Below are positions 4,562 through 50,300 of a stretch of DNA of 64,000 bases, piece by piece (position 1 is the stretch's first letter; every line of letters begins with the position of its first letter). The notes beneath the pieces are model-generated. The model was not told the DNA's origin, searched no databases, and was given only the letters and a program-made list of their open reading frames with translations. Source of the DNA: Escherichia phage phiAPCEc03; the sequence record NC_047754.1; one strand, 5' to 3'. The translations under genes and the position numbers were made by a program.

Positions 4562-4930
4562 ATGAAAGCATATCAAAATCTTAAATCTGGCGTAATTAAC
4601 CTTGTTCATGAAAATCAGATTATTCAGCTATACTCCGACAACGGCGAACTTAAGCAGAAAGTTCTAGTTGAAGATCTAGAAGGTATCACACCACAATTCG
4701 ATCCCGAAGCCTTCCGTGAGGTCAAAGTGGAAGTCGCCCCTCAAATCGAAGGTGGTCAACACCTAAACGTCAATGTGTTAAGCCGTGATCAGCTTTTGGA
4801 TGCGCAGAAACATCCTGAAAAATACCCTCAGTTGACCATCCGTGTCTCTGGCTACGCTGTTCGATTTAATGCACTGACTCGTGAACAACAGAACGACGTT
4901 ATTAGTCGTACATTTACTCAGGCGATGTAA
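4562..4930 (+). CDS. hypothetical protein
   Basis: 122-aa ORF with GGAGA RBS. Confidence 0.55.
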
Positions 4931-5011
4931 TGGGGTTTGGATACGATTTCTCCCAGCTACGCAAGGTAGTCGAGCAAACTCCGTTTATCTCCCAAGTTTT
5001 AGGAGAAATGT

Positions 5012-5326
5012 GTGGATCGAGCATTAAGACGTCATCACCGGCAACGTGTGAAGAACAACCGCAAGAAGTACTGGACAGCCTTTCCACATGAAGAAAGCCC
5101 TAAGCGGTTAGGTATTATCACTACTACTCCTTGCATCTGTTCTTGTTGGATGTGTGGTAACCCTCGCAAGTACTATAAGAATAGTAAAGCAGGCATGAAG
5201 ACCTCGGAGATCAGGAAAATGGAAGCGATGATTATGGGCATCTCAAATGATGAATTTGATGGCTTTGTAGGGTTCGGAGAAGGAATCAGCTCAGGCTGTT
5301 TCGAAGATGAACGCCCCGATCTGTAA
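5012..5326 (+). CDS. hypothetical basic protein with Cys cluster (GTG start)
   Basis: AGGAG RBS 6 nt before GTG; arginine-rich N-terminus and CxCxC/CxxC cysteines. Confidence 0.45.
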   Translation: MDRALRRHHRQRVKNNRKKYWTAFPHEESPKRLGIITTTPCICSCWMCGNPRKYYKNSKAGMKTSEIRKMEAMIMGISNDEFDGFVGFGEGISSGCFEDERPDL

Positions 5327-5447
5327 TTAATAACAAACCCCAGCTATTGAATAAGTAGTCTGTGGTTTTTCTGTATACAGGAAAATAGTTTATGTATAAT
5401 AAAATTCATCCACATTAGGTTAATTTAAAAGACTTAATGGAGGTAAT

Positions 5448-5795
5448 ATGAGCCGTACTTATCGTAGACAATCTGGTGATCAGTGGTGGAAGTCTAAAGA
5501 ACAATTCTCTCAAGAATATTCTTTCCTCAAAGAAAATGGCTACTGGATTCGTGTTATTTATGCCAAATCCTGGGACGACATCAAAAAAGAAATGAAGGAA
5601 GCAACCATTCGTAATGAGAAAAAGGATGGTTATAACTGGAATTCCATTAGTAAGAATGTTAAGTGGCACTCTAATAAAATGGTTCGTCAAGGGAATCGTC
5701 AAGAACTTCACCGCGTGATGAAAGATCCAGAAAATTACGACTATAATCGCGATCATGACATGCGTAAGCGTGGGTTATGGTGGTGCTATGACTAA
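5448..5795 (+). CDS. hypothetical protein
   Basis: 115-aa ORF with GGAGG RBS. Confidence 0.6.
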   Translation: MSRTYRRQSGDQWWKSKEQFSQEYSFLKENGYWIRVIYAKSWDDIKKEMKEATIRNEKKDGYNWNSISKNVKWHSNKMVRQGNRQELHRVMKDPENYDYNRDHDMRKRGLWWCYD

Positions 5796-5812
5796 ATTCT
5801 GAAATAATTCAT

Positions 5813-5865
5813 TTGCTAAACCTCTCTTTTCTTGCTATAATATATTTATAAATTGATGAGAGAGG
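5813..5865 (+). promoter_or_regulatory. T5-type early sigma70 promoter
   Basis: -35 TTGCTA, 17-bp spacer, -10 TATAAT, then ATAAATTGATGAGAGAGG box. Confidence 0.6.
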
Positions 5866-5871
5866 TTTGAA

Positions 5872-6153
5872 ATGAAAAATCGCCTAGACTGTGCCATTCA
5901 TGTTCTTGAACATGATGTTGCGGGAACCTGTATGTCTTACCACGAAGCAGGTCGTTTAATTAAAGAACGTGTGGCAGATGTGTGCGGATTGAAGATTACT
6001 GCTGAGGAAGCGGATGATCTTTTAGGTCAAGCACTGGAGAAAACCGAAATGTTCCTCTGCGATTCTTGTTCTTGGTGGTGTGAAGCTCACGAACGTTCTT
6101 TCAACGATTATGATGTATGTCGTGATTGTAGTGGGGAGGATGAAGATGAATAA
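5872..6153 (+). CDS. hypothetical Cys-rich protein
   Basis: 93-aa ORF downstream of the promoter; CDSCSWWC and CRDCS motifs. Confidence 0.55.
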   Translation: MKNRLDCAIHVLEHDVAGTCMSYHEAGRLIKERVADVCGLKITAEEADDLLGQALEKTEMFLCDSCSWWCEAHERSFNDYDVCRDCSGEDEDE

Positions 6154-6442
6154 GTTTATTATTGCACTGATGATCTCCGCAGTTAGTTTCGGTTCTCTGG
6201 CGTCTACCAAAGTTTCTATGAAAAATGGTAATGTTAAAGTCCAACAGAGCGGCATTATTACCGAGTATGGTAAAGTTCGTGATGTTAAAGAACGTAATGG
6301 TAAGGTAGAAATCTATACTAATAAAAACTTCTCTACTCCAGCCGTTACTATTAGCAAACGCGGTGAAATAACCACTCAACGTACTAATAGCTCCAGTTCT
6401 TTTACTTGTCGTTATGATTGCGACTTTGAAGGAGAAGAGTAA
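6146..6442 (+). CDS. secreted protein with signal peptide
   Basis: GGAGGA RBS; N-terminus MNKFIIALMISAVSFGSLAS is signal-peptide-like. Confidence 0.5.
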   Translation: MNKFIIALMISAVSFGSLASTKVSMKNGNVKVQQSGIITEYGKVRDVKERNGKVEIYTNKNFSTPAVTISKRGEITTQRTNSSSSFTCRYDCDFEGEE

Positions 6443-6443
6443 C

Positions 6444-6752
6444 ATGGAAAAGAACGTGAAAAGACTAAACATCAATAGCACGGTGCAGATTCCAGCAACT
6501 AAGGATGTTTTAACATTCCTACGAAGTGAAAACGCTCAGTTTTGGCATGATCATGTTGTAAAGAACGGTAGTATTCCAGATGTAGTTGCCTTTGCCAAAA
6601 AACGTATCGAAGAATATAAAGATCCAGAGATTAAAGATGGGATGATCACTATGCAATTGTGGGTAGCCATGAATACGTTTGGACCTACTATGAGTCTAGG
6701 GGTTACTCCACTATTTACTAATATTCTAATTAATGAAAAGGATCTAAAATGA
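6444..6752 (+). CDS. hypothetical protein
   Basis: ORF MEKNVKRL with GGAGAAG RBS. Confidence 0.5.
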   Translation: MEKNVKRLNINSTVQIPATKDVLTFLRSENAQFWHDHVVKNGSIPDVVAFAKKRIEEYKDPEIKDGMITMQLWVAMNTFGPTMSLGVTPLFTNILINEKDLK

Positions 6753-7033
6753 TTATCTCTCCCTTTGCTCTTTGGTTCGTCATTGGATCTATAGTAGCTA
6801 TTTACAGCTTGGTTGATGATCTGTATATTTCTAAGAATAAAGATGTAATATTATACGTTATACATAAAACTCGACCGTTAGATCTGCCTCCTCTTGATGA
6901 TAAAACATTACTCAGATGTGCTAGATCTATGATATTTATTGTGGATATTCTTCTAGGCCCAACATCTGTGTTTTTCTTTTATAGAAAGACTCGTAATATG
7001 AAAAAATTTAAAGCTGAAATGCAGAATACCTAA
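6749..7033 (+). CDS. membrane protein
   Basis: 94-aa ORF with hydrophobic segments; ATGA overlap with the upstream gene. Confidence 0.5.
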   Translation: MIISPFALWFVIGSIVAIYSLVDDLYISKNKDVILYVIHKTRPLDLPPLDDKTLLRCARSMIFIVDILLGPTSVFFFYRKTRNMKKFKAEMQNT

Positions 7034-7142
7034 AGAACTCGCGTAGGACCGAGTTGCGTCACCTGCAACTGTTACGGATAAGGGAGTCGTGCCCCTTAGT
7101 GCGGTAAGTGGTGAGGTGGCTCTAGCCCTAACTGGAGATAAT

Positions 7143-7487
7143 ATGACTATATTACTAATTCTTGTTACAACTTGGTTTTTAATCGGTGCTGTATATGCGA
7201 TAGCTATTATTAGACATTTGGACGAATACTCTGCTGAATGGTTTGTTAAGTATCTACGTATTGATGATCAAGAACATGAGTTTAAAGATGAAAGACAGAA
7301 AAAAGCAGTAAATAATATGACAGCCAAAGAATGCTTGTTCTACATGCGTATTGTAGGGTTCTTTGGACTATTAGTTGCTGGCCCAATTGGTTCTACCATT
7401 GCTCCATATAAAGAAACAGTTGCTGACATCAAATTGTGGAGAAATGCAGGGGTACTACGCAAAGCTAGAGAAACTAGTATTACATAA
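7143..7487 (+). CDS. membrane protein
   Basis: ORF MTILLILVTTWFLIGAVYAIAII with GGAGA RBS. Confidence 0.5.
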   Translation: MTILLILVTTWFLIGAVYAIAIIRHLDEYSAEWFVKYLRIDDQEHEFKDERQKKAVNNMTAKECLFYMRIVGFFGLLVAGPIGSTIAPYKETVADIKLWRNAGVLRKARETSIT

Positions 7488-7532
7488 GATTGACACTAAG
7501 TCAACTTACTAGCAAAAGCAAATAATGACAAA

Positions 7533-7568
7533 GCCCAGCCTGCACTTTTGCGACTGGGCTATTTTTAT
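7533..7568 (+). terminator. rho-independent terminator
   Basis: GC-rich hairpin GCCCAG...CTGGGC followed by a T-tract. Confidence 0.6.
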
Positions 7569-7581
7569 AATAAAATTTTAG

Positions 7582-7634
7582 TTGCTTAGATGCCCAAACT
7601 TTTATATAATATGTTTATAGATTGAGGCAAGAGG
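7582..7634 (+). promoter_or_regulatory. T5-type early sigma70 promoter
   Basis: -35 TTGCTT, 17-bp spacer, -10 TATAAT, downstream GATTGAGGCAAGAGG. Confidence 0.6.
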
Positions 7635-7641
7635 ATTAAAT

Positions 7642-8322
7642 ATGAGAATCATTTCTAAATTCGCCGATGTGTATGATTTGCAGAACAGTTTGTTCGACCC
7701 TGATCGTGTTTGGGAGCGTAAAACTGAAGAGCTAACAATAAAGGCTCCAGATGATGGCAACTACATGATTATGCAAGAACGTATAATTGCTCGTGTTGGT
7801 GAAAAGAACGGCTACTTTAAAATTCTACCGTTTTTCCTAGCAGGAGAGATTTACTGGATGTACCATATTGATGTATTGGATACTCAAGTAAAAACTTTCA
7901 ACCTAGACAAAGCATTAGAAGTTCTGAAAGAGAATGGATGGTCAACGGGGTTTTCTCTGCTAGATATAAATAGGGGGAAGCCAAAAGAATCTATCCTATC
8001 CTGGAAAGAGGAAGTTACCTCTAAAGCTGAAGAAGCCTTAGCTGAGTTAAGAGTACCCTTAGCGGTTCTAGACTCAGTAGTTCCAAATGATAAAGATAGT
8101 AATAAGTATTTCAAGGCTATAACTAACCCACGCCTACATCTATCAGGTATTCCGTGGCAGGAAGTTGAAAGCAACTTATACCGATTACACCAGAGGGTTG
8201 AGCAGTATATCTGGGGGGTGCTTGGAACTGGAGAACCAGATATTATTACCACTTCTGATAAAGACCGCCTAGCAGCACATGGATTTGATACGGTTACATC
8301 ATTTAGGAATATGAAAAGATGA
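7642..8322 (+). CDS. hypothetical protein
   Basis: 226-aa ORF downstream of the promoter. Confidence 0.6.
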   Translation: MRIISKFADVYDLQNSLFDPDRVWERKTEELTIKAPDDGNYMIMQERIIARVGEKNGYFKILPFFLAGEIYWMYHIDVLDTQVKTFNLDKALEVLKENGWSTGFSLLDINRGKPKESILSWKEEVTSKAEEALAELRVPLAVLDSVVPNDKDSNKYFKAITNPRLHLSGIPWQEVESNLYRLHQRVEQYIWGVLGTGEPDIITTSDKDRLAAHGFDTVTSFRNMKR

Positions 8323-8762
8323 TAAAAAACTTTATTAGTTCTCTATGGCACGGTAAGTGGTATATCCTGGGAGCAGGTCTAGCGATAGGCATCTGGTTCG
8401 GTGCTTATCACTTAGTAGATAAAGTGGAGACTTTAGCAGGAGATCTTGCGGTAGCTACTAAAAAGATTTCTTCTCTAGAGACTTCCCTTAATAAGGTGAA
8501 AGCTGAAAGTGAACTTCGTGAGACTAGAATGAATCAGTATTTCACAATGAATAATATTTCGCAAGCAGATCTAGACAAAAAGATTAAGCAGTTAGATAAA
8601 GCTCTTAGTCGCCAAGATATTATAGCTGCAAAACCTGGATTGGTAACATTAATTGCTAAAAAGCAGAGTAAAGAGTTCGAGGAAAGATTAGCGTGTTTAA
8701 CTGGAAGCTTGGAATACTGCTCGCAGCCGCAATCACAATCACAGGCTGCGCACAAGAAATAA
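8319..8762 (+). CDS. membrane-anchored coiled-coil protein
   Basis: N-terminal transmembrane segment then heptad-like region. Confidence 0.5.
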   Translation: MIKNFISSLWHGKWYILGAGLAIGIWFGAYHLVDKVETLAGDLAVATKKISSLETSLNKVKAESELRETRMNQYFTMNNISQADLDKKIKQLDKALSRQDIIAAKPGLVTLIAKKQSKEFEERLACLTGSLEYCSQPQSQSQAAHKK

Positions 8763-9046
8763 AGCCAGAACCTACACATGAACTACCAACAGCTCATGTG
8801 GACTGGCCTAAAGGACTTCAACCTTGTAGCTTTGACTTTAAGTTTGAAAAGAAATTAGCTACAAATGGAGAAGATGGCGTAGTAGTTGTTGTACCATATA
8901 AAGATTGGAATGCAAAAGCAAAATGTGAGGAAGCAGTTTACTCTTACATTTCACGACTGACTGGTATGGTTTGCTTCTACCGCCAAGATTTACAAGAAAA
9001 ACGTTGCTTAGTTTACTATCCACCAATTAACAATAGGAAAGATTAA
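8693..9046 (+). CDS. lipoprotein
   Basis: Signal peptide with lipobox ITGC. Confidence 0.5.
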   Translation: MFNWKLGILLAAAITITGCAQEIKPEPTHELPTAHVDWPKGLQPCSFDFKFEKKLATNGEDGVVVVVPYKDWNAKAKCEEAVYSYISRLTGMVCFYRQDLQEKRCLVYYPPINNRKD

Positions 9047-9798
9047 TGTCAGTATTAGTAGGTTTACATGGTGAAGCTGGTTCGGGAAAAGATACCGTTG
9101 CAAAATTAATTATCGATTGGTGTAATGACACGTATCCAACGTGTTTATCACGTCGTTATAGTTTTGCTAAGCCCGTTTATGAACTTGCATCCGTAATCCT
9201 CGGTGTAACTCCAGAGTTTCTAGGAGAGCGCAGAGGAAAAGAGATTGACCAATGGTTTACGGTCACACAATCTCAATTGGAGCGAGCCAGAGATGTGTGG
9301 TTTAAGTACGGTATCGATAAGTTTGAAGACTTCTCGTACGTTTGGCCTATTTTTGAGGAAAAATATCTTAATCCTCAACAACTTATCTCAGAGAATAAAG
9401 AAGACGGACTTTATAGTTTATTTATTTCTCCGAGAAAAATGTTACAGCTCGTAGGGACAGAGCTAGGAAGGCAGCTGGTGCATGAACGCATTTGGCTCAT
9501 AATTCTGGAGCAATCCATCGCTAAAGACGACCCAGATGTCGCCGTAATAACAGATGTTAGATTCCCCAATGAAGGAGAGTTACTCAGAGAAACAAACCAT
9601 TTAGATATGGATTCTTTGATAGTAAATGTAGTACCCGCTGAGCAGAAGTTCACTATTAAATCAGATCATCCATCTGAAAGTGGTATTCCTGCAAAATATA
9701 TTACTCACGAATTAGTTAATAAATTCGATGGTATCAATAACCTTAAACTAGAAGTTTATAACTTCTGTGACTTAGAGCTAGAACCACTAGTTGGATAA
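9046..9798 (+). CDS. dnk: deoxynucleoside monophosphate kinase
   Basis: P-loop GEAGSGKDT as in T4-type dNMP kinases; 250 aa matches the size I recall for T5 dNMP kinase. Confidence 0.65.
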   Translation: MSVLVGLHGEAGSGKDTVAKLIIDWCNDTYPTCLSRRYSFAKPVYELASVILGVTPEFLGERRGKEIDQWFTVTQSQLERARDVWFKYGIDKFEDFSYVWPIFEEKYLNPQQLISENKEDGLYSLFISPRKMLQLVGTELGRQLVHERIWLIILEQSIAKDDPDVAVITDVRFPNEGELLRETNHLDMDSLIVNVVPAEQKFTIKSDHPSESGIPAKYITHELVNKFDGINNLKLEVYNFCDLELEPLVG

Positions 9799-9810: not shown

Positions 9811-10392
9811 ATGACTAATAAAAAAGAAGAAAAGACTAACCTGTTTCACTCCATTCGCCAATCTAACGAGTATACCTTTTTCTTTGATGAAGAACTCGGT
9901 CCGCCGGATGAATACCGTGATTTAGCAATGGTACTTATGCAGGCAAATGAGGACGATGAAATTAATCTGATGATTAATGGTCCGGGTGGTTATGTTGATA
10001 CTGCTGCACAGTTATCTAACTTAATTGCTAATTGCCGTGGAACAGTTATAGGGCATCTGATTGGTCCTAGTGCTTCTGCTTACTGCACAATTTTCCTATC
10101 TTGTCATGGATGGGTAGTACATCCACATGCTACGCTAATGGGACACACGTTCTCTGGCGGGTTCTGTGAGAAGGGTCAAGAAATTAAGAAAGCCTATGAA
10201 TCTTACAACAAGTTCGTAGAAGATATGATGCTAGATGTCTACTATCCATTCTTCTCAATAGATGAAATAGACGAGATGGTAAAAGACAACAAAAATATCT
10301 ATCTAGATAGCAAGGAAATCCATAAGCGTATTGAAATCTTGGCAAAATATCGATCTGAGCAATATAATAAAGCCCAGTTACCTCAATTCTAG
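9811..10392 (+). CDS. ClpP-like serine peptidase
   Basis: INGPGG motif, Ser in GPSASAY and His in GHTFSGG spaced as in ClpP. Confidence 0.5.
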   Translation: MTNKKEEKTNLFHSIRQSNEYTFFFDEELGPPDEYRDLAMVLMQANEDDEINLMINGPGGYVDTAAQLSNLIANCRGTVIGHLIGPSASAYCTIFLSCHGWVVHPHATLMGHTFSGGFCEKGQEIKKAYESYNKFVEDMMLDVYYPFFSIDEIDEMVKDNKNIYLDSKEIHKRIEILAKYRSEQYNKAQLPQF

Positions 10393-14879: not shown

Positions 14880-15469
14880 TGAAGGTTAAATTCTGGTCAG
14901 ACTTGCACCTAGACCACCCTGGAGCACTACGTTTTCGTCCGTGGTTTAAGAACATGAAAGAGCACGATGAATATATTCTAGATACTCTTTCGAAGCATAT
15001 TGGTAAACGAACAAAACTTATTTTGCTAGGAGATATTGCAGTAGGTCGTGAAGGTCTGGCCAAATTAAAGTCGGTTATCCACAATGTTCCTAATCAACTG
15101 ATTATGGGCAATCACGATGCGGAACGTCAAGGACTGAGCATCAGGGACTTAGCGGAAGTTTATGACGATATTCAGGCTCTAGGTAAACAGACTGGAGGTG
15201 GCAAAAAGTTTTGGTTATCTCACTGCCCTTTGCACCCCAATGAACTTCGTGGTAAACTAAATATTCACGGACATGTACATACTATTTCTTTACGTGACCC
15301 ACGTTATATTAATGTCTCATTTGAAATGAGTAAAACTCCAGTTCCACTAGAGGATATTGTGTCTGGTAAGTTTACTAGCTATGATAGAGTAGTTAATTGT
15401 ACTACCGGCGAAGTATTACAAATATGGGAAGATGTAGCTGCTGTATTACGTGGTGATATAAATGTCTGA
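14876..15469 (+). CDS. metallophosphoesterase
   Basis: Motifs SDLHLD, GDIAVG, GNHD and GHVH. Confidence 0.6.
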   Translation: MMKVKFWSDLHLDHPGALRFRPWFKNMKEHDEYILDTLSKHIGKRTKLILLGDIAVGREGLAKLKSVIHNVPNQLIMGNHDAERQGLSIRDLAEVYDDIQALGKQTGGGKKFWLSHCPLHPNELRGKLNIHGHVHTISLRDPRYINVSFEMSKTPVPLEDIVSGKFTSYDRVVNCTTGEVLQIWEDVAAVLRGDINV

Positions 15470-21845: not shown

Positions 21846-22382
21846 TATTCTGCAAGTCTCGGTGCACAATACCTGTACCGAGACAATAATACAAACTCTC
21901 GTTGACAGATAGCTAAATGTATGTTATCATAACTCTATGAGTTAATAGAATTAACCATTTAGAGTTGCCACACAGAAGGTGTGGTGGTTCAGTAATTTAA
22001 AATTACTAACTTGTAGCGGAGGATACGGAGCGACAGGACAAGTTAATAAGTAATTTAATATAAATTGCTAGAAACATCACGAGACCTTCTGGCGGGGGCA
22101 AAGCTCTATATGAGAACCCTGGGGGATCTTATATTTAAAATAAAAGTAAAACTTTTGACCACATAATTTACATTCAAGATGATACACCTGTTGCCGCTCA
22201 TCTGCTAGGATGGCACAACACTTTCTTCTAGACTCCTAAGTTTTTATGAAAACTCTAGTCAACTCAGGCGGTTTTCATTGTTCCTAGAAACTCTAGCAAT
22301 AGGCGGTTAATACAGGGCGGTTATAGGGAGGGCGGTTATTTCTAGGAGACATTTTTTGAAAACACATTTCCAGAAATTACTA

Positions 22383-22981
22383 TCGGATTTGCACATTGTG
22401 TTTCTAGAAATTTATGGTCGGATTTGCACAAACGCCTAAGTTTTCAGGAACTCTTACTCTCCTGAAAATGGCAGCATTATTTCGGGCCGAAGGCCCGTGA
22501 TTGCCTGAGTTTTTAGAGTCACAATAATTTTCACTTGTCAAGCTATTTTGCCCCATTTAGCTAATAAAATTTTACTTTATCTGCACTTATCTCAAATTAA
22601 CCCAAATCTTCTCAACTCTTCCCCAAAATCCCCGCAAATCAGGTGCTCCGCACCAAACATGCACCTCTCCCACAGTTCCCCCAAGTTTCTCTCGCTCTCT
22701 CAACTTCTCCCCAAACTCATACAATCACACACCCTCCAATCGAAGTCACAAAAATCTTGTCGGATTCGCACAAATAAACCCCTGTCGGATTTGCACATAT
22801 TCTAGCTAATTCCACAGGATTGATGCGCAGCATCGGATTGCTGTAGTTTTTAGGAAAATTCATTGTCGGATTTGCACACTATAAAAATTTTTCGGGTCGG
22901 ATTTGCACACTACTAAAAATTGTCGGATTCGCACATACACGCCCACGCGTAACACCCGTGGAGCAATGTCGGATTTGCACA
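22383..22981 (+). repeat. iteron-like array: 8 direct copies of 13-bp TCGGATTYGCACA
   Basis: Copies start at 22383, 22428, 22759, 22785, 22866, 22897, 22923 and 22969, all in the same orientation within a noncoding region. Confidence 0.85.
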
Positions 22982-23033
22982 AAAGCGCAGGGCAATTGCC
23001 CTGCCCGCCTGAATGCAAATACAAATGAGAATC

Positions 23034-23165
23034 ATTCGCATTTAAAAAGCGGAATGAGAATGATAATGATTCGCATTTAAAAAGTGAAATGAAAATTATT
23101 CAGGAAGTGAAACGATTCTCATTTAAAAAGTGGAATGCAAATGATAGTGATTCGCATTTAAGAAC
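23034..23165 (+). repeat. 4 direct copies of ATTCGCATTTAAAAAG-containing unit
   Basis: Units at about 23034, 23069, 23115 and 23150, period about 35-45 bp. Confidence 0.75.
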
Positions 23166-23191
23166 GGAAGTGAGAAACACTGTTATTTAAG

Positions 23192-23273
23192 TTATCCACA
23201 GACTTATTAACCGCATAATTTGACTTGACAGAATCCTAGCCATTTTGAGGCGTTATTAACAGACTTATCCACA
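23192..23273 (+). promoter_or_regulatory. DnaA-box-like 9-mers (TTATCCACA), two copies
   Basis: Exact TTATCCACA at 23192-23200 and 23265-23273. Confidence 0.55.
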
Positions 23274-23442
23274 GCTTATCCTACTGTATAAATATACAGT
23301 ATTCCTACGCAGTGAATAATTCTAATATAGTCCTAAAACGTCCTAGATCGCATTCTAACGCGTTTAATTTTGGTGGGGATACTAAAACAAGGGGTTATCC
23401 GGTTGCAGGCGTGAAAAACGGGGATCTGCTCCCCGCTTGTTG

Positions 23443-23637
23443 TCAGTCCGGTAATTGATGCGTGATCTTCTCCTCCTCCCCGTAGGAATCGACCAAATGT
23501 TGATAGTAACCATCGGCATCATAAATAACGCTATCATACTCGCCACGCTCGACCGCTTGCCGGTTTTCCGGCGTATCGGGCACGTAAAAAACATCAACCA
23601 TTGTACTGGTTTTAGTCACAATAATTTTATTGCTCAT
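23443..23637 (-). CDS. hypothetical small protein (pre-early-like block)
   Basis: 64-aa ORF with AGGGG RBS-like sequence. Confidence 0.5.
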   Translation of the reverse strand: MSNKIIVTKTSTMVDVFYVPDTPENRQAVERGEYDSVIYDADGYYQHLVDSYGEEEKITHQLPD

Positions 23638-23662
23638 AATAACCCCTAGTAAATATATAATT

Positions 23663-24007
23663 TCATTGTGCTACCTTTCGAAAAGCTGTTTCAATACTTT
23701 CCGCAGTTGATTGAATATACGCGCCTTTCATGATCAGGCGCTCAGTGCATATCTTACGGAAAATATTAATAAAATCATCTTCATTTTCTGCAATTAATGC
23801 TTCACCCATAACCTGAACGTCGCAAGATGCAAAGGTCAAAAATTGAAACGCTAGTTCACGGGCAACGACCGCATTGATTTTATAATGCGCCTTGCCCTCA
23901 TAAATATTAATAACGCCCTTGTAAGCTGGGGAAAGCTGGTTTAAATAGTTTGCTAGTAATGCCGGACGGCAATTAGCAACAAAGCGGTTGCCCTCATAAA
24001 TAACCAT
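23663..24007 (-). CDS. hypothetical protein
   Basis: ORF with GGGAGG RBS before internal ATG at 24007 (MVIYEGNRF); the listed ORF extends to 24022. Confidence 0.5.
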   Translation of the reverse strand: MVIYEGNRFVANCRPALLANYLNQLSPAYKGVINIYEGKAHYKINAVVARELAFQFLTFASCDVQVMGEALIAENEDDFINIFRKICTERLIMKGAYIQSTAESIETAFRKVAQ

Positions 24008-24130
24008 TTTATAACCTCCCAATCAGGTAACCAGATAAAAGCATAAAAATCCCCAGTAAAAGGGGATCATTCTTAAATAAGGTGGCGGTAAAACCGCCAA
24101 CCATTGCAAGGAGAATAACAATAGCGCTTT

Positions 24131-24343
24131 TCATAGTACCCCACGAAACGCAGCGTAAAAGGTGGCAAAGTGTTTAACTGTTTCAGCGATCACGTTGCCG
24201 CGCTTGTCAAATTTTTTCTCGGTAACACGAAAGGCATTTTTGTTACGTGCTACATATTCGATTTTACAATCTTCCCGCTCGAACGTGTTAACATCCACCA
24301 GCTTAAAGCCTTTCGAACGTGCAAGAGAAACGTTGCGGATCAT
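24131..24343 (-). CDS. hypothetical basic protein
   Basis: 70-aa ORF. Confidence 0.5.
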   Translation of the reverse strand: MIRNVSLARSKGFKLVDVNTFEREDCKIEYVARNKNAFRVTEKKFDKRGNVIAETVKHFATFYAAFRGVL

Positions 24344-24345
24344 TT

Positions 24346-24501
24346 TTATTCTCCTTTACTAGTCATGCAGCCCAGCAGATAAGAAAATACAGCGATACCC
24401 GCGCCAATAATAACCGCGTGAACGCCGAAAGCTATGGCAAAAAGTGATAAAATAGCGCCCAAGATACCTGCCAGAATAGCTCGAAAAATAACCATTTTCA
24501 T
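24346..24501 (-). CDS. small hydrophobic membrane peptide (51 aa)
   Basis: ORF MKMVIFRAILAGILGAILSLFAIAFGVHAVIIGAGIAVF, GGAG RBS; below the ORF-track cutoff. Confidence 0.4.
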   Translation of the reverse strand: MKMVIFRAILAGILGAILSLFAIAFGVHAVIIGAGIAVFSYLLGCMTSKGE

Positions 24502-24541
24502 TCTCCTAGTTAGCGGGGCGAAAATAACGCCCCGTTATTAC

Positions 24542-24772
24542 TTACATTAAAACAATTTTAGCGGCTTGTTTTTTGGTGCAATGTTCCGCCTTCAGGGTAT
24601 CCAGCAAAAAGCCAGCCGTTTGCTGGTCAATCTTATCAGCGTTATACAATTCTTGGATGGTGTTATAAGTTTTAGCAATGCCATATTCTTGCACCATTTC
24701 GTGAATAATAACGCGGTTAGATACCCAGCCTTGAGCGGTGAACAGATGACTAGCAGAAGAATAAGCAACCAT
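24542..24772 (-). CDS. hypothetical protein
   Basis: GGAGG RBS before internal ATG (MVAYSSASH); the listed ORF extends to 24829. Confidence 0.5.
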   Translation of the reverse strand: MVAYSSASHLFTAQGWVSNRVIIHEMVQEYGIAKTYNTIQELYNADKIDQQTAGFLLDTLKAEHCTKKQAAKIVLM

Positions 24773-24889
24773 TTTAAGCCTCCAATTTTTGGGAAAATTT
24801 TCAACCGTCCTCGAACGGTGTAAGGGCATTATAACAAAAAAGGCCGCCGATTATGGCGACCTTTACAAAACTTTACATTAGATTATTTA

Positions 24890-25123
24890 TTACTCGCTTT
24901 CGGTGCTAGTGGTAAAAGTAGAAATATCAATACCTTTCACCATTTCATCAATCATCTCAGCAATGTTAAAAGATTGCACCATTTCTAACATAGCCGCTTC
25001 CATAGCTGCACCTGCTACCGCTTTCGCCTTTTGGTTACTCGGGGCGTACTGGTCAACCGCTACACTCAGCAGGTTAGCGATCACTACCCGACCAATCGGC
25101 GTATCAATATAGCCTTTAATCAT
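24890..25123 (-). CDS. hypothetical protein
   Basis: 77-aa ORF; start overlaps the upstream stop (ATGA), suggesting coupling. Confidence 0.5.
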   Translation of the reverse strand: MIKGYIDTPIGRVVIANLLSVAVDQYAPSNQKAKAVAGAAMEAAMLEMVQSFNIAEMIDEMVKGIDISTFTTSTESE

Positions 25124-25866
25124 GAAGGGCGCTTTTTAGCCGCTACTTTCGTAATTTGAGTCAGTGCAATTTTACCCGCTTCCAGTTTTGCAGCGTTTAC
25201 AACAGCGGATTTATTAGCGGCAACGATGTTAGCAATCTTGGTCATAGTATTTTTTCCTTTATTTTCAGTAGTTTGAGCGTTAGAATTTACAGCATGTTTT
25301 TCCGTGTTGTCAATAGGCTGATCTTCATCTTTCCAGAAAGAAAAACCAGCACTTTCGATGTCGCCATCATATACATATGGGTATAGCTCCCGTGGTAGCA
25401 AAAAATTGCCATCGTCATCAAAAGCCATTACAGCCGCCAGACGATACCCGTCACCAATTGACCGATTCCAGCCAACTGATAAATAACGCCAAAATGAATC
25501 GAGAAAATTTTCAACGTCATAAAGATCATTGGGGTTGGCCCCATAGTTTTCTATTGAAAAAACTTCTAAGCCCGCCCCAGTATCATAGGCTTTTACTATA
25601 CTACCTTTTACAATTATGAAATCGGTATCCGGCCCCCTGCTAGTAAGCAGGTGATTATCTCGATTATATAAAACAAGCGTTGCCCCTTGCTTATACAGTT
25701 GCAAAAAACTACTCATATCATAGGCATCGAAATCATCAAAAAAATTTTGGTGAATATCTTCGGACTTGTTAACAAAGTGTTTAATGCTGGTTGTTCTGCT
25801 ACCATCCAGCAGGTTACGCAGCGCACCTTTTAAGACGGTTGCGTTATCTGGTTTATATAGCCTCAT
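25120..25866 (-). CDS. hypothetical protein with Ala/Lys-rich C-terminal tail
   Basis: 248-aa ORF, first gene of the minus-strand block. Confidence 0.6.
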   Translation of the reverse strand: MRLYKPDNATVLKGALRNLLDGSRTTSIKHFVNKSEDIHQNFFDDFDAYDMSSFLQLYKQGATLVLYNRDNHLLTSRGPDTDFIIVKGSIVKAYDTGAGLEVFSIENYGANPNDLYDVENFLDSFWRYLSVGWNRSIGDGYRLAAVMAFDDDGNFLLPRELYPYVYDGDIESAGFSFWKDEDQPIDNTEKHAVNSNAQTTENKGKNTMTKIANIVAANKSAVVNAAKLEAGKIALTQITKVAAKKRPS

Positions 25867-26158
25867 TTGTTCGGCCCCCTCGTTAATCGGTGAGTGAATG
25901 ATAAGGGTAATTTTCTAGCATAGGCAAAGATTATTTTACTTTTTTATTTTCCTTGCCTAACGCCTATTTTTATGCTAACCGCGCAGCGGTGTACTAAAGA
26001 GCAAAACACGGCGAAGCCACCAGGCCGTCGCATTGAGGCTTTACTTTAATATTACCTTGTAGCGTTCAGCTCGTTAGAAAGCGTTTTAGGCCGCTTAAAA
26101 TTGATTGCAGTCGTTAACACTACCTTTTTACCCTGTGTATTTATACAGTAGAATAACC

Positions 26159-26540
26159 TGTGGATAAGTCTGTGCAAAAGTCCCTATATCGCCGCCTATC
26201 GTGTCAAATTATTTTGTGCTGTGGATAACGTTGTGGATAACTTAAATGATAGTGGTTCTCACTTAGGCCGATAGTTTCTTATAGTTATTATTTCTTATAA
26301 TTATTATTTCTCATTAATTTATAAGTATATTATATATCATGAAATAGTTAGTTGGCTAATGAGATTTTCCGTGATTAATAGTCTGCTAATAATTTAAGCC
26401 GTTACAATCCACCAGCATGATTATCATCCTAGCAATTATTAGTCTGCTATCTTTCCGATGCATACTAACAGATAAAAGTCAATTAATTTATTTTATAAAA
26501 TAAGTAGTTATCCACTGGAAAATAGAAGTCAAGTGGATAA
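26159..26540 (+). promoter_or_regulatory. DnaA-box-like 9-mer cluster, mostly in reverse orientation
   Basis: TGTGGATAA at 26159-26167, 26220-26228 and 26232-26240; TTATCCACT at 26507-26515 and AGTGGATAA at 26531-26539. Confidence 0.55.
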
Positions 26541-26987
26541 CTAGGAAAATTTCATTTTTGCTTCTGGGGATAAGTTATCAACAAGGCTAGAATGCGCCTA
26601 AAACGCCCTAGAACGCGATGAAGTTTTTAGCCATCTCATCATAAAGGGATAAGCCGTTTATCGCTGTCACGAGCTTTTTAGGTTTTGTCAAGTAGGGCAA
26701 AGTAAATATAAATGAAAAAATTACTTGCCTATTTGCTATGTTTTGTGGTATTCGCGCGCCCGTTTCTTTCAATTTTAGGCCGTCGCCGCACGCCGTCCGG
26801 TGGATCGTGTCTTTACGTTTCTTTACAAAAATAAGGTTGCGCCATTTTCGGGAATCCCCTATTATTTATCTCGTAGGGCGGCAATGACGAACTACACGGC
26901 GGGAAGTTTACCACCACGCTCTTTAAAAATTGGGTACATCTTAAAGCCTATCGGCGGTAAACTTATTCATTATAAGGAATCGACGAT

Positions 26988-27191
26988 ATGAAACAAACGC
27001 TTTTGATCACTGGCAAGCCTATTAAGGCACTAGATATCAAAACAAAAAACTTGTTGACAGTAGCACAAAGATCAGTAAAATATAGATTCACGCAGTACAA
27101 GAAAGGTCGCCAGCAAGGTTTAGAAATGATCTGGCGAAATATTATGATTGACTTGAAAGAAAATCATAAAAAACTGCAAAAAACCGCTTGA
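26988..27191 (+). CDS. hypothetical basic protein
   Basis: 67-aa ORF with AAGGA RBS. Confidence 0.4.
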   Translation: MKQTLLITGKPIKALDIKTKNLLTVAQRSVKYRFTQYKKGRQQGLEMIWRNIMIDLKENHKKLQKTA

Positions 27192-27216
27192 CAACCTAGC
27201 CGATAGGTTTTAAGAT
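27188..27216 (+). promoter_or_regulatory. sigma70-like promoter
   Basis: -35 TTGACA, 17-bp spacer, -10 TAAGAT. Confidence 0.4.
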
Positions 27217-27420
27217 GTACCCAGTTCGATAAGAGCGATAACTTGATAAAATTTGACGGTCGGTGCTTACCATAATGCATCCCGCCCCCCTAACTGGGAT
27301 ATAGCGGCCTACGTGGAGTTCTTTAAATCGATTATACTGGCGAGCGGATTGTTACTTATTACCTGCTACTTTCTAGCAGGTAATGCGGAACAATCCACCA
27401 AATAACTCGGAGTTTATATT

Positions 27421-27770: not shown

Positions 27771-28178
27771 ATGACTAACGTTAAAACCGCAAAATTCGCA
27801 TGGAATGAAGAAAACACTCAGAAAGCTGTTTCCATGTATCAGCAGTTAATTAATGAAAACGGTTTAGATTTCGCAAATAGAGACGGTTTAAAAGAGATTG
27901 CAAAAGCAGTTGGCGCGGCTTCCCCTGTATCCGTTCGCTCAAAATTGACCAGTGCAAAAGCCTATCAAAAAAGCGATAAGCCGCGTAAAGTTGGTGGCGG
28001 TAGCTCTGTGCGTAAAGCTCACTATGTGCGCGTTATCGCTAAACATGCTATTGATTCCGGCATTATCAAAGACGCCGACGATCTGGCAAGTCTGGAAAGT
28101 GCAAAACTTGAAACGCTGGACGCAGTAGCGCAACTGTTAGGCGTTGCCGATGAAGTAAAACAAGCCGCAGGCGAATAA
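27771..28178 (+). CDS. A2: A2-like pre-early protein (tentative)
   Basis: 135-aa ORF next to the A1-like gene; size matches what I recall for T5 A2; assignment rests on size and synteny only. Confidence 0.4.
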   Translation: MTNVKTAKFAWNEENTQKAVSMYQQLINENGLDFANRDGLKEIAKAVGAASPVSVRSKLTSAKAYQKSDKPRKVGGGSSVRKAHYVRVIAKHAIDSGIIKDADDLASLESAKLETLDAVAQLLGVADEVKQAAGE

Positions 28179-28557: not shown

Positions 28558-30228
28558 ATGATTATTTCCGCAGAAAAACAAACCGTTATCCTGAAAATGG
28601 CCGCTGACTTTAATTTCTATGGTAAACGTCTGCGCGCTACTAAACTGGAAGTCTGCGACGATATATCAAAAGCGGTCTACGATACAACGAAGCATTCAAC
28701 CGCTATCTGCGACTGGCTGGAAGCAAATAAACCAGCTAAACCGAAAGCGGCAAAAGTAGCAAAAGCCATTAAAAACGATGAGCGCCCAGAAGCGGCGGGG
28801 ATTGTTTCTAGTACGGTTGAGCAATGGGAAGTAAAACAGGGTAAACGCTTTATTATTACGTCGATTCAGAATAATACTTTCCCACATAAAAACTTTTTAG
28901 CAAGTCTGGAAAAATTCGCTGAATATATCGGTGCTGATTTGCTTGTTTCTAAGTATATTTATAATAAAAACGGCTTCCAGAATGGAGAAGGTGCAGACGG
29001 TATCAAATACGATCCCGCATTTGATAAATATATTTGCAGCAAAAACGTGTTTTTAAATAACCGCCGTTTTGCTTTCATGGCTGAAATTAATGTTTTGCCT
29101 ACCGCAGACTATCCGCTTTCAGGATTTGCAGAAACTGCAACGGCTTTAAATATTGAAGGGCTGGCAATTGGTCACGCTAAAATTACCGCTGAAAGCGTGC
29201 CAGCTTTAAAAGGTGAAGTAGTGCGCCGTATGTATTCAACCGGAACGGCAACGCTCAAAAACTACATTCAGCAGAAAGCAGGACAAAAAGCCGAGGCGCT
29301 GCATAACTTCGGTGCGCTTATAGTTGAGTTCGACGACGACGGGGAATTTTTTGTTCGCCAGCTTGAAACAATGGACGAAAGCGGGGTGTTTTATGATCTG
29401 AACGTTTGCGCTACTCCTGCCGGATGCTATGAGACATCGGGGCATGTTTTAGGCTTGCAGTATGGCGATATTCACGCCGAAAAATTAGATGAGGAGTGCG
29501 CCGCCGCATCTTGGGGGCATGGTGATACTTATGGGCTAGTAGATATTCTTAAACCAAAATATCAGTTTGTGCATGACGTTCACGATTTTACATCCCGCAA
29601 TCATCATAACCGCGCATCCGGTGTATTCCTAGCTAAACAATACGCCGCCGGACGTGATAAAGTTCTGGATGATCTTATCGATACGGGGCGCGTGCTGGAA
29701 TCAATGGAACGTGATTTTAGTCAAACAATCATTGTTGAATCTAATCACGATTTGGCGCTATCCCGTTGGCTTGATGATCGTAATGCTAACATCAAAGACG
29801 ATCCAGCAAACGCCGAGTTATATCACCGCCTGAATGCTGCAATTTACGCGGCAATCGGTGAACACGACGAAACGTTTAACGTGCTAGATTATGCGTTGCG
29901 CAAGGTTGCAGGTTGTGAATTTAACGCCATTTTCCTGACCACTGATCAATCTTTCAAGATTGCAGGCATTGAATGCGGCGTACACGGTCACAATGGCATT
30001 AACGGCAGTCGTGGCAATCCTAAACAATTTAAAAAATTGGGCAAGTTAAACACGGGGCATACCCATACCGCCAGCATTTATGGCGGCGTATATACCGCTG
30101 GCGTTGCTGGTAGTCTGGATATGGGTTACAACGTTGGCGCGTCAAGCTGGACGCAAACGCATTTAATTACCTATGCAAATGGTCAACGCACTTTGATTGA
30201 CTTTAAAAACGGTAAATTCTTTGCATAA
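28558..30228 (+). CDS. A1: A1-like pre-early protein, metallophosphoesterase-family nuclease
   Basis: 556 aa; calcineurin-like motifs GDIH, SNHD, GVHGHNG and GHTHT in canonical order; size matches T5 A1. Confidence 0.7.
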   Translation: MIISAEKQTVILKMAADFNFYGKRLRATKLEVCDDISKAVYDTTKHSTAICDWLEANKPAKPKAAKVAKAIKNDERPEAAGIVSSTVEQWEVKQGKRFIITSIQNNTFPHKNFLASLEKFAEYIGADLLVSKYIYNKNGFQNGEGADGIKYDPAFDKYICSKNVFLNNRRFAFMAEINVLPTADYPLSGFAETATALNIEGLAIGHAKITAESVPALKGEVVRRMYSTGTATLKNYIQQKAGQKAEALHNFGALIVEFDDDGEFFVRQLETMDESGVFYDLNVCATPAGCYETSGHVLGLQYGDIHAEKLDEECAAASWGHGDTYGLVDILKPKYQFVHDVHDFTSRNHHNRASGVFLAKQYAAGRDKVLDDLIDTGRVLESMERDFSQTIIVESNHDLALSRWLDDRNANIKDDPANAELYHRLNAAIYAAIGEHDETFNVLDYALRKVAGCEFNAIFLTTDQSFKIAGIECGVHGHNGINGSRGNPKQFKKLGKLNTGHTHTASIYGGVYTAGVAGSLDMGYNVGASSWTQTHLITYANGQRTLIDFKNGKFFA

Positions 30229-42800: not shown

Positions 42801-43286
42801 ATGGACCATAGAACAAGTATTGCACAAGCTATGGTTGACCGAATCTCTAAACAAATGGATGGTTCTCAACCTGACGAATATTTTAATAACCTATACGGAA
42901 ACGTTTCTCGTCAAACTTATAAATTTGAGGAAATACGAGAGTTTCCTTATGTGGCAGTTCATATCGGAACTGAAACTGGGCAGTATCTTCCTTCGGGCCA
43001 ACAGTGGATGTTTTTAGAACTTCCAATCCTGGTGTACGATAAAGAGAAAACAGACATTCAAGAGCAACTTGAAAAACTCGTAGCGGATATAAAAACCGTT
43101 ATTGACACAGGTGGAAATTTAGAATATACTGTTAGTAAACCTAATGGATCGACCTTCCCATGTGAGGCAACTGATATGATCATTACATCAGTTAGTACAG
43201 ATGAGGGTCTACTGGCCCCATATGGTTTAGCAGAAATAAATGTAACAGTGAGGTATCAGCCTCCACGTAGGTCACTTCGCAGATAA
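42801..43286 (+). CDS. tail terminator protein (p142-like, putative)
   Basis: 161 aa, immediately upstream of the tail tube gene. Confidence 0.45.
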   Translation: MDHRTSIAQAMVDRISKQMDGSQPDEYFNNLYGNVSRQTYKFEEIREFPYVAVHIGTETGQYLPSGQQWMFLELPILVYDKEKTDIQEQLEKLVADIKTVIDTGGNLEYTVSKPNGSTFPCEATDMIITSVSTDEGLLAPYGLAEINVTVRYQPPRRSLRR

Positions 43287-50240: not shown

Positions 50241-50259
50241 ATGGAAAAATAAAAATTTC

Positions 50260-50300
50260 TTGATAAAATTTTCTAATACTATTATAATAATTGTATCTAA
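50260..50300 (+). promoter_or_regulatory. sigma70-type promoter upstream of distal tail genes
   Basis: -35 TTGATA, 17-bp spacer, -10 TATAAT, followed by strong RBS AAGAGGAGAAATTAACTATG. Confidence 0.5.

Follow-up and report, generated by a model that had tools for sequence, protein, structure and literature searches.

Double DnaA boxes and LexA-type palindromes in the T5-like inverted repeats that flank the pre-early cassette of Escherichia phage phiAPCEc03

A T5-type inverted repeat in phiAPCEc03

Why the entry of bacteriophage T5 DNA stops after 8% of the genome has been injected is a question about sixty years old. The pause was shown by shear experiments for both T5 and BF23, it is independent of phage protein synthesis (Davison, bioRxiv 10.1101/866236), and a 2026 PNAS paper still calls the mechanism of the injection stop poorly understood. 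The sole molecular proposal is that membrane-bound DnaA catches boxes in the DNA and stops injection; the boxes, eight DnaA or DnaA-like sequences in pairs 3 bp apart, lie in 131-bp inverted repeats (Davison, bioRxiv 10.1101/866236). According to the same author's citation of the earlier work, a single DnaA box in the T5 repeat had been noted as early as 1987. The first-step shear point has been calculated to fall slightly outside the arm that is proximal to the injection-stop (iss) repeats, past its outer end (Davison, bioRxiv 10.1101/866236), and a minor first-step band of ~5.8 kb, observed in 1979, falls near the other, A2-proximal arm. Here we describe the corresponding element of Escherichia phage phiAPCEc03 (NC_047754.1), analyzed within a stretch of 64,000 nucleotides (nt) that we refer to as the window; relative to the conventional T5 map, its plus strand is read in the other direction.

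The region of interest is ~90% identical to positions 4598-9445 of the BF23 left terminal repeat, in reverse orientation, and was matched by 472 records of T5-like phages. Gene A1 (28558-30228), the product of which is 100% identical to A1 of Salmonella phage PS3-1, and gene A2 (27771-28178) are found alongside dmp, as in the T5-type first-step-transfer region. A first-pass annotation of this DNA had pointed out a 15-mer, CAGACTTATCCACAG, at 23260-23274 with an exact reverse complement at 26158-26172, and had proposed that the two copies flank a block of minus-strand genes. Both observations are correct: the 15-mer has two matches against 0.08 expected, and the block of minus-strand open reading frames (ORFs) is real and flanked by inverted copies. 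However, the 15-mer is only the part that has been preserved best within a longer inverted repeat of 132 nt (23168-23299 and 26133-26264), which has 74% complementarity and 2833 nt between its arms.

These arms almost certainly correspond to the ~131-bp inverted repeat that occurs twice in the first-step-transfer (pre-early) region of T5-like phages. Two inverted copies of this length lie in the terminal-repeat region of a phage with dmp, A1 and A2; the left copy abuts DRE and DRD repeats, and the right copy sits between a variable cassette and the genes on the A2 side. This agrees with the T5-type layout, where one copy adjoins these repeats close to the terminal-repeat end and its partner occupies the divergent-promoter region upstream of the rightward cassette. 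Together the two copies hold eight DnaA or DnaA-like boxes, arranged as two pairs in each copy; the boxes of a pair are separated by 3 bp, and the distance between pairs is constant. Because the left arm adjoins the DRE-type and DRD-type repeats of the published iss region, we equate it with IRD'-spacer-IRC' and the right arm with IRC-spacer-IRD (Table 1). Position, length, orientation, paired boxes, the DRE/DRD repeats and the linkage to A1, A2 and dmp are all the same as in T5 and BF23. The window thus carries the orthologue of the T5/BF23 injection-stop inverted repeats, and structurally there is nothing different about it. The element itself is already known, since the T5 element, its DnaA boxes and the idea of a DnaA-mediated stop have all been published. 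The DnaA boxes of the T5 repeats are reportedly also contained in a 2005 publication by Wang, and the 1987 report is said to be that of Heusterspreute.

Two points of comparison nevertheless go beyond this. The window has eight boxes matching the consensus at 7/9 positions or better, six of them in full, where the T5 figure is seven; and the inner edge of each arm carries a LexA-type palindrome that is absent from the accessible descriptions of T5 and BF23. Our analysis leaves the identity of the element unchanged and narrows the list of things worth testing, adding the double-box layout, a LexA-type site that is equally well conserved in the arms, and the inequality of the two arms.

For comparison, 39 loci anchored on A2 were fetched and nine further loci were added. 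Of 40 loci (BF23 and the 39 anchored on A2), 39 have the complete pair of arms; the remaining locus ends 1.9 kb upstream of A2. Among 27 close genomes, the arms could be aligned in all 27, with 92.8% identity for the left and 89.3% for the right arm, and they are recognizable as far as Proteus and Vibrio phages. In the same genomes, the essential gene A2 is 89% identical, and the cassette is 75% identical and 85% alignable. Conservation of the arms thus equals or exceeds that of an essential gene, which implies, as far as alignment can tell, that they have a function. Within one genome, the two arms are only 74 to 80% alike, indicating that they are not being homogenized, and the bases that they share are the motifs described below.

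Table 1. Coordinates of the arms, their motifs and the flanking elements in the window
Feature	Position	Strand	Remarks
DRD-type repeats	22382..22981	+	eight copies of GTCGGATT(T/C)GCACA (GTCGGATTTGCACA); Davison's Repeat Region 3
DRE-type repeats	23020..23167	+	…TGAGAAT…ATTCGCATTTAAAAAG…; abut outer end of left arm
Left, iss-proximal arm	23168..23301	+	equivalent of T5 IRD'-spacer-IRC'; outer to inner end read on plus strand
Double DnaA box L1	23192..23212	+	TTATCCACA gac TTATTAACC; 9/9 + 7/9; 3-bp spacing
TTGACA block, left-arm spacer	23225..23230	+	kept in both arms; arm alignment, direct reading
Double DnaA box L2	23253..23273	+	TTATTAACA gac TTATCCACA; 8/9 + 9/9; starts 61 bp after L1
LexA-type operator, left arm	23282..23301	.	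TACTGTATAAATATACAGTA; 8 bp inside L2; 1 mismatch from 20-bp consensus
Predicted intrinsic terminator of cassette	23414..23435	-	CGGGGA-GCAGA-TCCCCG, then TTTTT; hairpin and T-run reading
Variable accessory pre-early cassette	23443..25866	-	seven or eight small ORFs; first gene encodes DUF7566 protein
Candidate cassette promoter	25898..25927	-	A-rich tract, TTGCCT, 18 nt, TATCAT
Right, A2-proximal arm	26131..26264	-	equivalent of T5 IRC-spacer-IRD; outer to inner end read on minus strand
LexA-type operator, right arm	26131..26150	.	CCCTGTGTATTTATACAGTA; core CTGT-N8-ACAG; inner edge of arm
Double DnaA box R2	26159..26179	-	TTTTGCACA gac TTATCCACA; 9/9 + 9/9
TTGACA block, right arm	26203..26208	-	conserved; arm alignment, direct reading
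Double DnaA box R1	26220..26240	-	TTATCCACA acg TTATCCACA; 9/9 + 9/9; 61 bp start to start from R2
Palindrome	26505..26543	.	with TTATCCACT and AGTGGATAA; weakly conserved

Double DnaA boxes and a LexA-type palindrome in each arm

Both arms are built in the same order. At the outer end, GTGAGAAnCACT…ATTTAAG precedes a double DnaA box; the spacer with its conserved TTGACA and another double DnaA box follow, and TTATCC leads to the palindrome at the inner end. The consensus DnaA box TTATCCACA had been reported by the first-pass annotation at 23192 and 23265 on the plus strand and at 26159, 26220 and 26232 on the minus strand, and all five copies are present. This strict 9-mer occurs six times in the window against 0.60 expected, a tenfold enrichment; no shuffle reached six, and five of the six copies fall between 23192 and 26240. 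The relaxed consensus TTWTNCACA, in contrast, is not enriched window-wide (10 matches versus 7.5 expected), and six of its ten matches sit in the two arms. The comparison with background frequency therefore supports the boxes in their strict form and not in their relaxed one. Tandem pairs with a 3-bp spacing number four, compared with 0.48 per random window and a maximum of two in 60 random windows, and besides these four arm pairs there is a single weak double box elsewhere in the 64 kb. What stands out for DnaA is thus the strict 9-mer and the way in which its copies are clustered and paired. Outside the arms, a lone consensus box (TTATCCACA) at 15075-15083 has no partner.

The paired layout is itself shared among relatives. 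Double boxes recur at the arms of T5, BF23, Sugarland, AAS21, Proteus phage 1 (with a 2-bp spacing), My1, PVo5 and Achelous. The offset of 61 bp between pairs is found in both arms of the window, in both arms of BF23 and, for T5, in the single arm with scores for the two pairs, and double box L2 is 92.9% identical in relatives. A 2024 study of Escherichia coli by chromatin immunoprecipitation sequencing found DnaA bound in vivo almost only at tandem boxes 2 or 3 bp apart; one box of a pair may match at 7/9 positions only, and changing the spacing or either box abolishes binding (PMC11317965). The pairs in the window have the same features, that is, a common orientation, a distance of 2 or 3 bp and at least one box near consensus. 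Like the double boxes at purH, polA and DARS2 (PMC11317965), they are in the same orientation, 2 to 3 bp apart, with one box possibly at 7/9; unlike them, they come as two pairs per arm with a fixed 61-bp offset and lie in phage DNA. This layout makes binding considerably more plausible than matches to single boxes would, and we judge it likely that DnaA binds the double boxes of the arms. Recruitment of host DnaA, as suggested in the first-pass annotation, is thus the reading best supported by sequence (strict consensus, 3-bp tandem pairs and conservation, with arms 89 to 93% identical in all 27 close genomes and traceable to Proteus and Vibrio phages), although the idea itself had already been published.

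The palindrome at the inner edge of the arms had escaped the first-pass annotation. At both sites it retains the CTGT-N8-ACAG core of LexA operators, each time 8 bp inside the inner double DnaA box. When TACTGTATAAATATACAGTA is compared to the E. coli LexA consensus TACTG(TA)5CAGTA, 0.00 matches are expected even at three mismatches. Its heterology index, an approximate value derived from a set of 26 SOS boxes, is 0.8, and that of the right-arm site is 4.4, compared to 1.5 to 9.2 (median, 5.8) for the E. coli operators of that set. In close relatives, the left and right sites are 95.7% and 92.4% identical, respectively. We also examined such sites in loci L012, L001 and L038-L046 of our set. 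In nine divergent loci of 14 to 20 kb each, all sites with an index of up to ~6 are located at the arms: seven loci have two such sites each, PVo5 has one, and Achelous, the locus of which is cut at the record start, has none. Weaker matches off the arms (index, 8.5) were found once in the window and once in My1. Overall, the palindrome occurs in all lineages that we examined, from T5 to Proteus phage 1 (A1 42% identical) and Vibrio phage D51 (A1 34%).

The pattern of variation also resembles that of LexA operators. The degree to which each position is conserved correlates with the information profile of E. coli LexA sites (rho, 0.87; P = 0.001; ten independent positions), and the natural variants of the palindrome, CTGG, CCAG and changes in the center, are those tolerated by LexA. 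In the A2-side arm of Proteus phage 1, the DnaA boxes have been lost and the LexA-type palindrome has been retained (9911-9930 of locus L042), indicating that the paired palindromes flanking the cassette are more persistent than the DnaA boxes. Judged by alignment from T5 to the Vibrio phages, the palindrome is the most conserved element of the arms. We consider it rather probable, if less so than for DnaA, that LexA binds it. We found no literature linking LexA to T5-like phages, a negative that the T5 papers of 1987, 2005 and 2015 could still overturn by naming the palindrome; LexA and SOS are not mentioned by Davison (bioRxiv 10.1101/866236).

The arm sites share with the operators of recA, sulA and umuDC the CTGT-N8-ACAG core, the AT-rich center and the TA flanks. 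They differ from them in lying over no demonstrable promoter, in a strictly lytic phage, in two inverted copies and always 8 bp from a DnaA pair. Moreover, all 59 unique arm sequences have either AA or TT at the center of the palindrome, and none has AT or TA, which would make it perfect. AA is the reverse complement of TT, and both forms occur among very close relatives. Flipping through a hairpin is one explanation that this suggests, and selection against a perfect palindrome of 20 bp is the other.

That the motifs keep to the host consensus despite the great divergence of A1 and A2 favors host ligands of fixed specificity over a coevolving phage protein. This bears on the possibility that the motifs are instead bound by phage proteins, either A2 or A1 and A2 together, as a release site for the second step, with their likeness to DnaA and LexA sites being coincidence or mimicry. 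A1 and A2 are indeed needed to restart transfer, A2 is annotated as DNA binding in several relatives, and Davison has both proteins acting near this region (bioRxiv 10.1101/866236). However, the stop needs no phage protein synthesis, and the motifs remain at host consensus even though A2 falls to 65% and A1 to 34 to 42% identity. A match to the LexA consensus at 19 of 20 positions, together with the profile correlation of 0.87, is also unlikely to be a coincidence. We regard binding by phage proteins as improbable.

A comparison with alphaproteobacterial homologs of A1, meant to follow a switch in the LexA motif, proved inapplicable, as A1 of Dinoroseobacter phage R5C and Rhizobium phage RHEph09 lies in unrelated contexts. 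These two loci (20 to 25 kb) contain at most one consensus DnaA box, no CTGT-N8-ACAG and no comparable module. Within the arms, we discarded the TTGACA of the spacer as a -35 element, since no acceptable -10 element follows it in either arm, and a search by eye found no integration host factor (IHF) consensus at the right spacing.

Two unequal arms at the cassette borders

We propose, with a probability of roughly 0.5, that the arms are arrays of sites for host proteins that form a block at the borders of the cassette and that the iss-proximal copy is part of the injection stop. Each arm is a fixed array of two double DnaA boxes that start 61 bp apart followed, 8 bp inward, by a near-consensus LexA-type operator, with all sites pointing toward a variable cassette that has its own candidate promoter and terminator. 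Two dimers of DnaA and one of LexA would land on each arm, giving rise to a static protein-DNA block at each cassette border, formed without phage protein synthesis. LexA would serve here as an architectural or roadblock protein rather than as an SOS sensor; if true, a virulent phage would be putting the SOS repressor to an unusual use. Of the two copies, the one beside the DRE and DRD repeats would be the important one and would belong to the injection-stop region, and the A2-proximal copy would be an auxiliary duplicate that can be lost. We infer the binding of DnaA and LexA, and the action of the block on DNA entry, from the motifs and their conservation. We hold a direct role of the arms in stopping DNA entry to be less likely than not. 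That lytic phages use LexA and DnaA as structural parts of an entry block, which would help set the boundary of two-step transfer, is likewise a tentative suggestion.

The inequality of the two arms is seen in a T5 mutant. A 2026 preprint describes a viable T5 mutant, forming small plaques, in which hegG to 017 is deleted. When its primers are mapped to the T5 sequence, the deletion spans ~4975 to 8741 of the T5 locus (L012), so that the A2-proximal arm (7905-8037), the cassette and the promoter are removed and the iss-proximal arm (4593-4726) is kept. Davison's Type 4 phages also lack the A2-proximal arm (bioRxiv 10.1101/866236). Because of this mutant and these phages, no essential structure can need both arms: the A2-proximal arm is dispensable, and pairing of the two arms is not essential. 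The long-range structure that the first-pass annotation had offered as one explanation of the inverted copies cannot, as far as it needs both arms, be essential either. The iss-proximal arm is the functional core, and only this arm can be essential.

Several points weigh against our proposal. In the literature, we found no published binding of DnaA or LexA to arm DNA and no effect of either on first-step transfer. Cytoplasmic DNA-binding proteins are not obviously able to halt DNA driven out of a capsid by pressure, and the stop may arise elsewhere, with the DRD repeats and the interior of the virion as examples. Across relatives, roughly one box in two deviates from the consensus at position 6 or 7, and the heterology index is an approximate guide to the LexA-type sites. 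Finally, RecA-dependent cleavage of LexA cannot be required, since T5-like phages grow on recA1 hosts. For the same reason, namely that T5-like phages have been isolated and grown on recA1 DH5alpha, we rejected LexA cleavage as a timer that restarts transfer.

The chief alternative is that the arms act on transcription as insulators or operators, with bound DnaA and LexA as roadblocks or repressors. RNA polymerase would be confined to the cassette or kept out of it when coming from strong neighboring pre-early promoters, and at the iss-proximal arm it would be stopped from reading, and perhaps from pulling in, DNA that is not yet injected. The arms indeed lie just outside the cassette terminator (23414-23435), which is predicted at the same place in BF23, and the candidate promoter (25927-25898). 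In addition, a strong promoter-like site on the minus strand (TAGCCA-18-TATAAT, 26358-26329), inside an AT-rich tract, reads straight into the right arm, and weak promoter-like hexamers overlap the LexA-type site of that arm (TTTACC-16-TAGAAT), the core of which exactly fills the 16-nt spacer. DnaA bound to its boxes is reported to block transcribing polymerase in an orientation-dependent manner, a result for which Schaefer and Messer (1988, 1989) are cited in PMC10950094. The DnaA roadblock at the asnC terminator is similar to the arms in that DnaA boxes lie just past a terminator at the end of a transcription unit; the arms differ from it by their multiple paired boxes and their LexA-type site. 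Insulating arms would be symmetric bookends, and inversion of the cassette would therefore be tolerated. However, in the alignment the left arm shows no conservation of the -35-like hexamer, and the iss-proximal arm is kept in relatives without a partner arm as well as in the T5 mutant without the cassette. We hold a role in insulation to be unlikely, albeit the strongest competitor of a host-protein block belonging to the injection stop. As a separate candidate, the LexA palindrome was rejected as the operator of the cassette promoter, as the best candidate promoter is ~200 bp away.

Clustered high-affinity DnaA boxes could also point to an origin of replication that depends on DnaA, or to a sink for the DnaA of the host. 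In the origins of Bacillus subtilis and Helicobacter pylori, bipartite clusters of DnaA boxes flank dnaA. The two arm clusters are similar in being a few kilobases apart and bridgeable by DnaA oligomers that loop the DNA between them; unlike those of the bacterial origins, they are inverted copies, and the second cluster is dispensable in T5. A tract of 21 to 22% GC (26250-26400) would suit an origin. It lies beside the right arm only, however, an arm that can be deleted, and it also holds the promoter-like site. As for a sink, the pool of DnaA in the cell is too large to be titrated by four double boxes per repeat. T5 origins have been mapped near the center of the genome, and the replication genes are not on first-step DNA (Davison, bioRxiv 10.1101/866236). 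Both an origin and a sink are very improbable.

Inversion of the cassette and neighboring repeats

The first-pass annotation had further read the inverted copies as an invertible-segment-like geometry, and this was borne out in part. All 36 close loci share the cassette orientation of the window. In the Klebsiella phages Sugarland and IME260, by contrast, every gene between the arms is on the A2 strand. BF23, AAS21, Sugarland and My1 carry true orthologues of the DUF7566 gene (316 to 330 aa), which is flipped and nearer to the iss-side arm in Sugarland, IME260 and Pectobacterium phage My1. We delimited the inverted cassettes at 4866-8011 of L038 (Sugarland), in L039 and L040 (IME260) and at 8019-10487 of L043 (My1). 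The order of genes along transcription is preserved in them, although the match of the second gene pair is weak (E = 6e-5). The inner flanks are swapped at matching offsets, the left flank of the window being 76% identical to the right flank of Sugarland over 67 nt (E = 1.6e-8). The support that this homology lends to the crossover point is partial, as both inner flanks also share the CCTAAAACGnCCTAGAaCGC motif. Davison describes Types 2 and 3 as a replacement by oppositely read genes and never calls it an inversion (bioRxiv 10.1101/866236); the reading of Sugarland, IME260 and My1 as inversions is new with respect to the accessible descriptions.

The geometry does not amount to a switch, however. 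A synthetic inverted junction was found in 0 of 448 related records at a coverage of at least 80%, compared to 159 of 450 for the native junction, and a Pfam scan of A2 and of five cassette proteins, all larger than the two smallest ORFs (41 and 51 aa), revealed no recombinase domain, DUF7566 being the sole domain found. On these grounds the segment is not a switch, and its inversion, as far as the available genomes tell, is a rare evolutionary event rather than a regulatory one. The cassette shares with the Hin, Gin, Cin and fimS segments the flanking inverted repeats and the existence of both orientations in nature, here across the phage family. It differs from them in that no recombinase was found, in the lack of polymorphism within a lineage, in its long and diverged arms (74% likeness and a length four to five times that of typical invertase sites) and in having undergone one or a few ancient inversions. 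A programmed switch that flips the cassette is thus refuted as far as sequence can go. Under the host-protein block proposed above, the inverted geometry would have permitted rare inversion during evolution, and the pair of palindromes would also mark the ends of a cassette that has flipped at least once.

The same findings could suggest that the arms are conserved linkers of a mainly evolutionary kind, providing homology that promotes exchange or inversion of the cassette between coinfecting relatives. In agreement with this, highly variable cassette content is enclosed by highly conserved arms, and an inversion bounded by the arms did happen. Such linkers would nevertheless leave unexplained the consensus motifs for host factors at fixed spacing, as well as the fact that the arms of one genome, at 74 to 80% likeness, are not homogenized. 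We therefore see this explanation as quite improbable.

Within the cassette of phiAPCEc03, the DUF7566 gene is split into two overlapping minus-strand ORFs (25120-25866, 248 aa, and 24890-25123, 77 aa; overlap, ATGA). The split results from a 1-nt deletion in an A-run (A6 to A5) at ~25133, and the BF23 protein is intact (330 aa). The deletion may be genuine, shifting the frame, or may stem from a sequencing error in the homopolymer. The candidate promoter of the cassette is likely the counterpart of T5 P11, and a promoter upstream of T5 gene 011 has been demonstrated experimentally.

Outside the arms, the first-pass annotation had placed further DnaA-like 9-mers at 26507 and 26531. These, TTATCCACT and its complement, actually start at 26508 and 26532 and are not enriched (3 versus 0.77 expected, with 6 of 100 shuffles reaching 3). 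They belong to the palindrome at 26505-26543, which aligned in 70% of relatives and is 55% identical over 27 of them. Being neither enriched nor well conserved, the TTATCCACT/AGTGGATAA palindrome was rejected as part of the arm system, and it is probably a separate feature.

Other repeats accompany the arms. The motif CCTAAAACGnCCTAGAaCGC occurs at 23333-23351 and 26595-26616 (plus strand) and, inverted, at 26065-26091, that is, on the inner side of both arms and in noncoding DNA on the A2 side; these copies are probably the IRB and IRB' of Davison. The 26250-26400 tract lies directly outside the right arm and includes repeated TTATTATTTCT units. The promoter-like site that it contains has a -10 and start region resembling what we take to be the sequence of T5 P_H207. 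Farther toward A2, a 39-nt inverted repeat (26917-26955 and 27199-27237; 85% complementary) brackets an ORF of 67 aa (26988-27191) and may represent IRA and IRA' of T5. Near-consensus promoter-like sites are located between its arms (27054-27081) and overlapping its right arm (27188-27216). Far from the pre-early region, what we presume to be the T5 promoter P_J5 matches 43087-43136 (100%, 50 nt), and a sequence that we take, perhaps under the wrong label, to be P_D/E20 matches 50244-50289 (93%, 46 nt). A 2026 preprint places P_D/E20 at the hdi gene.

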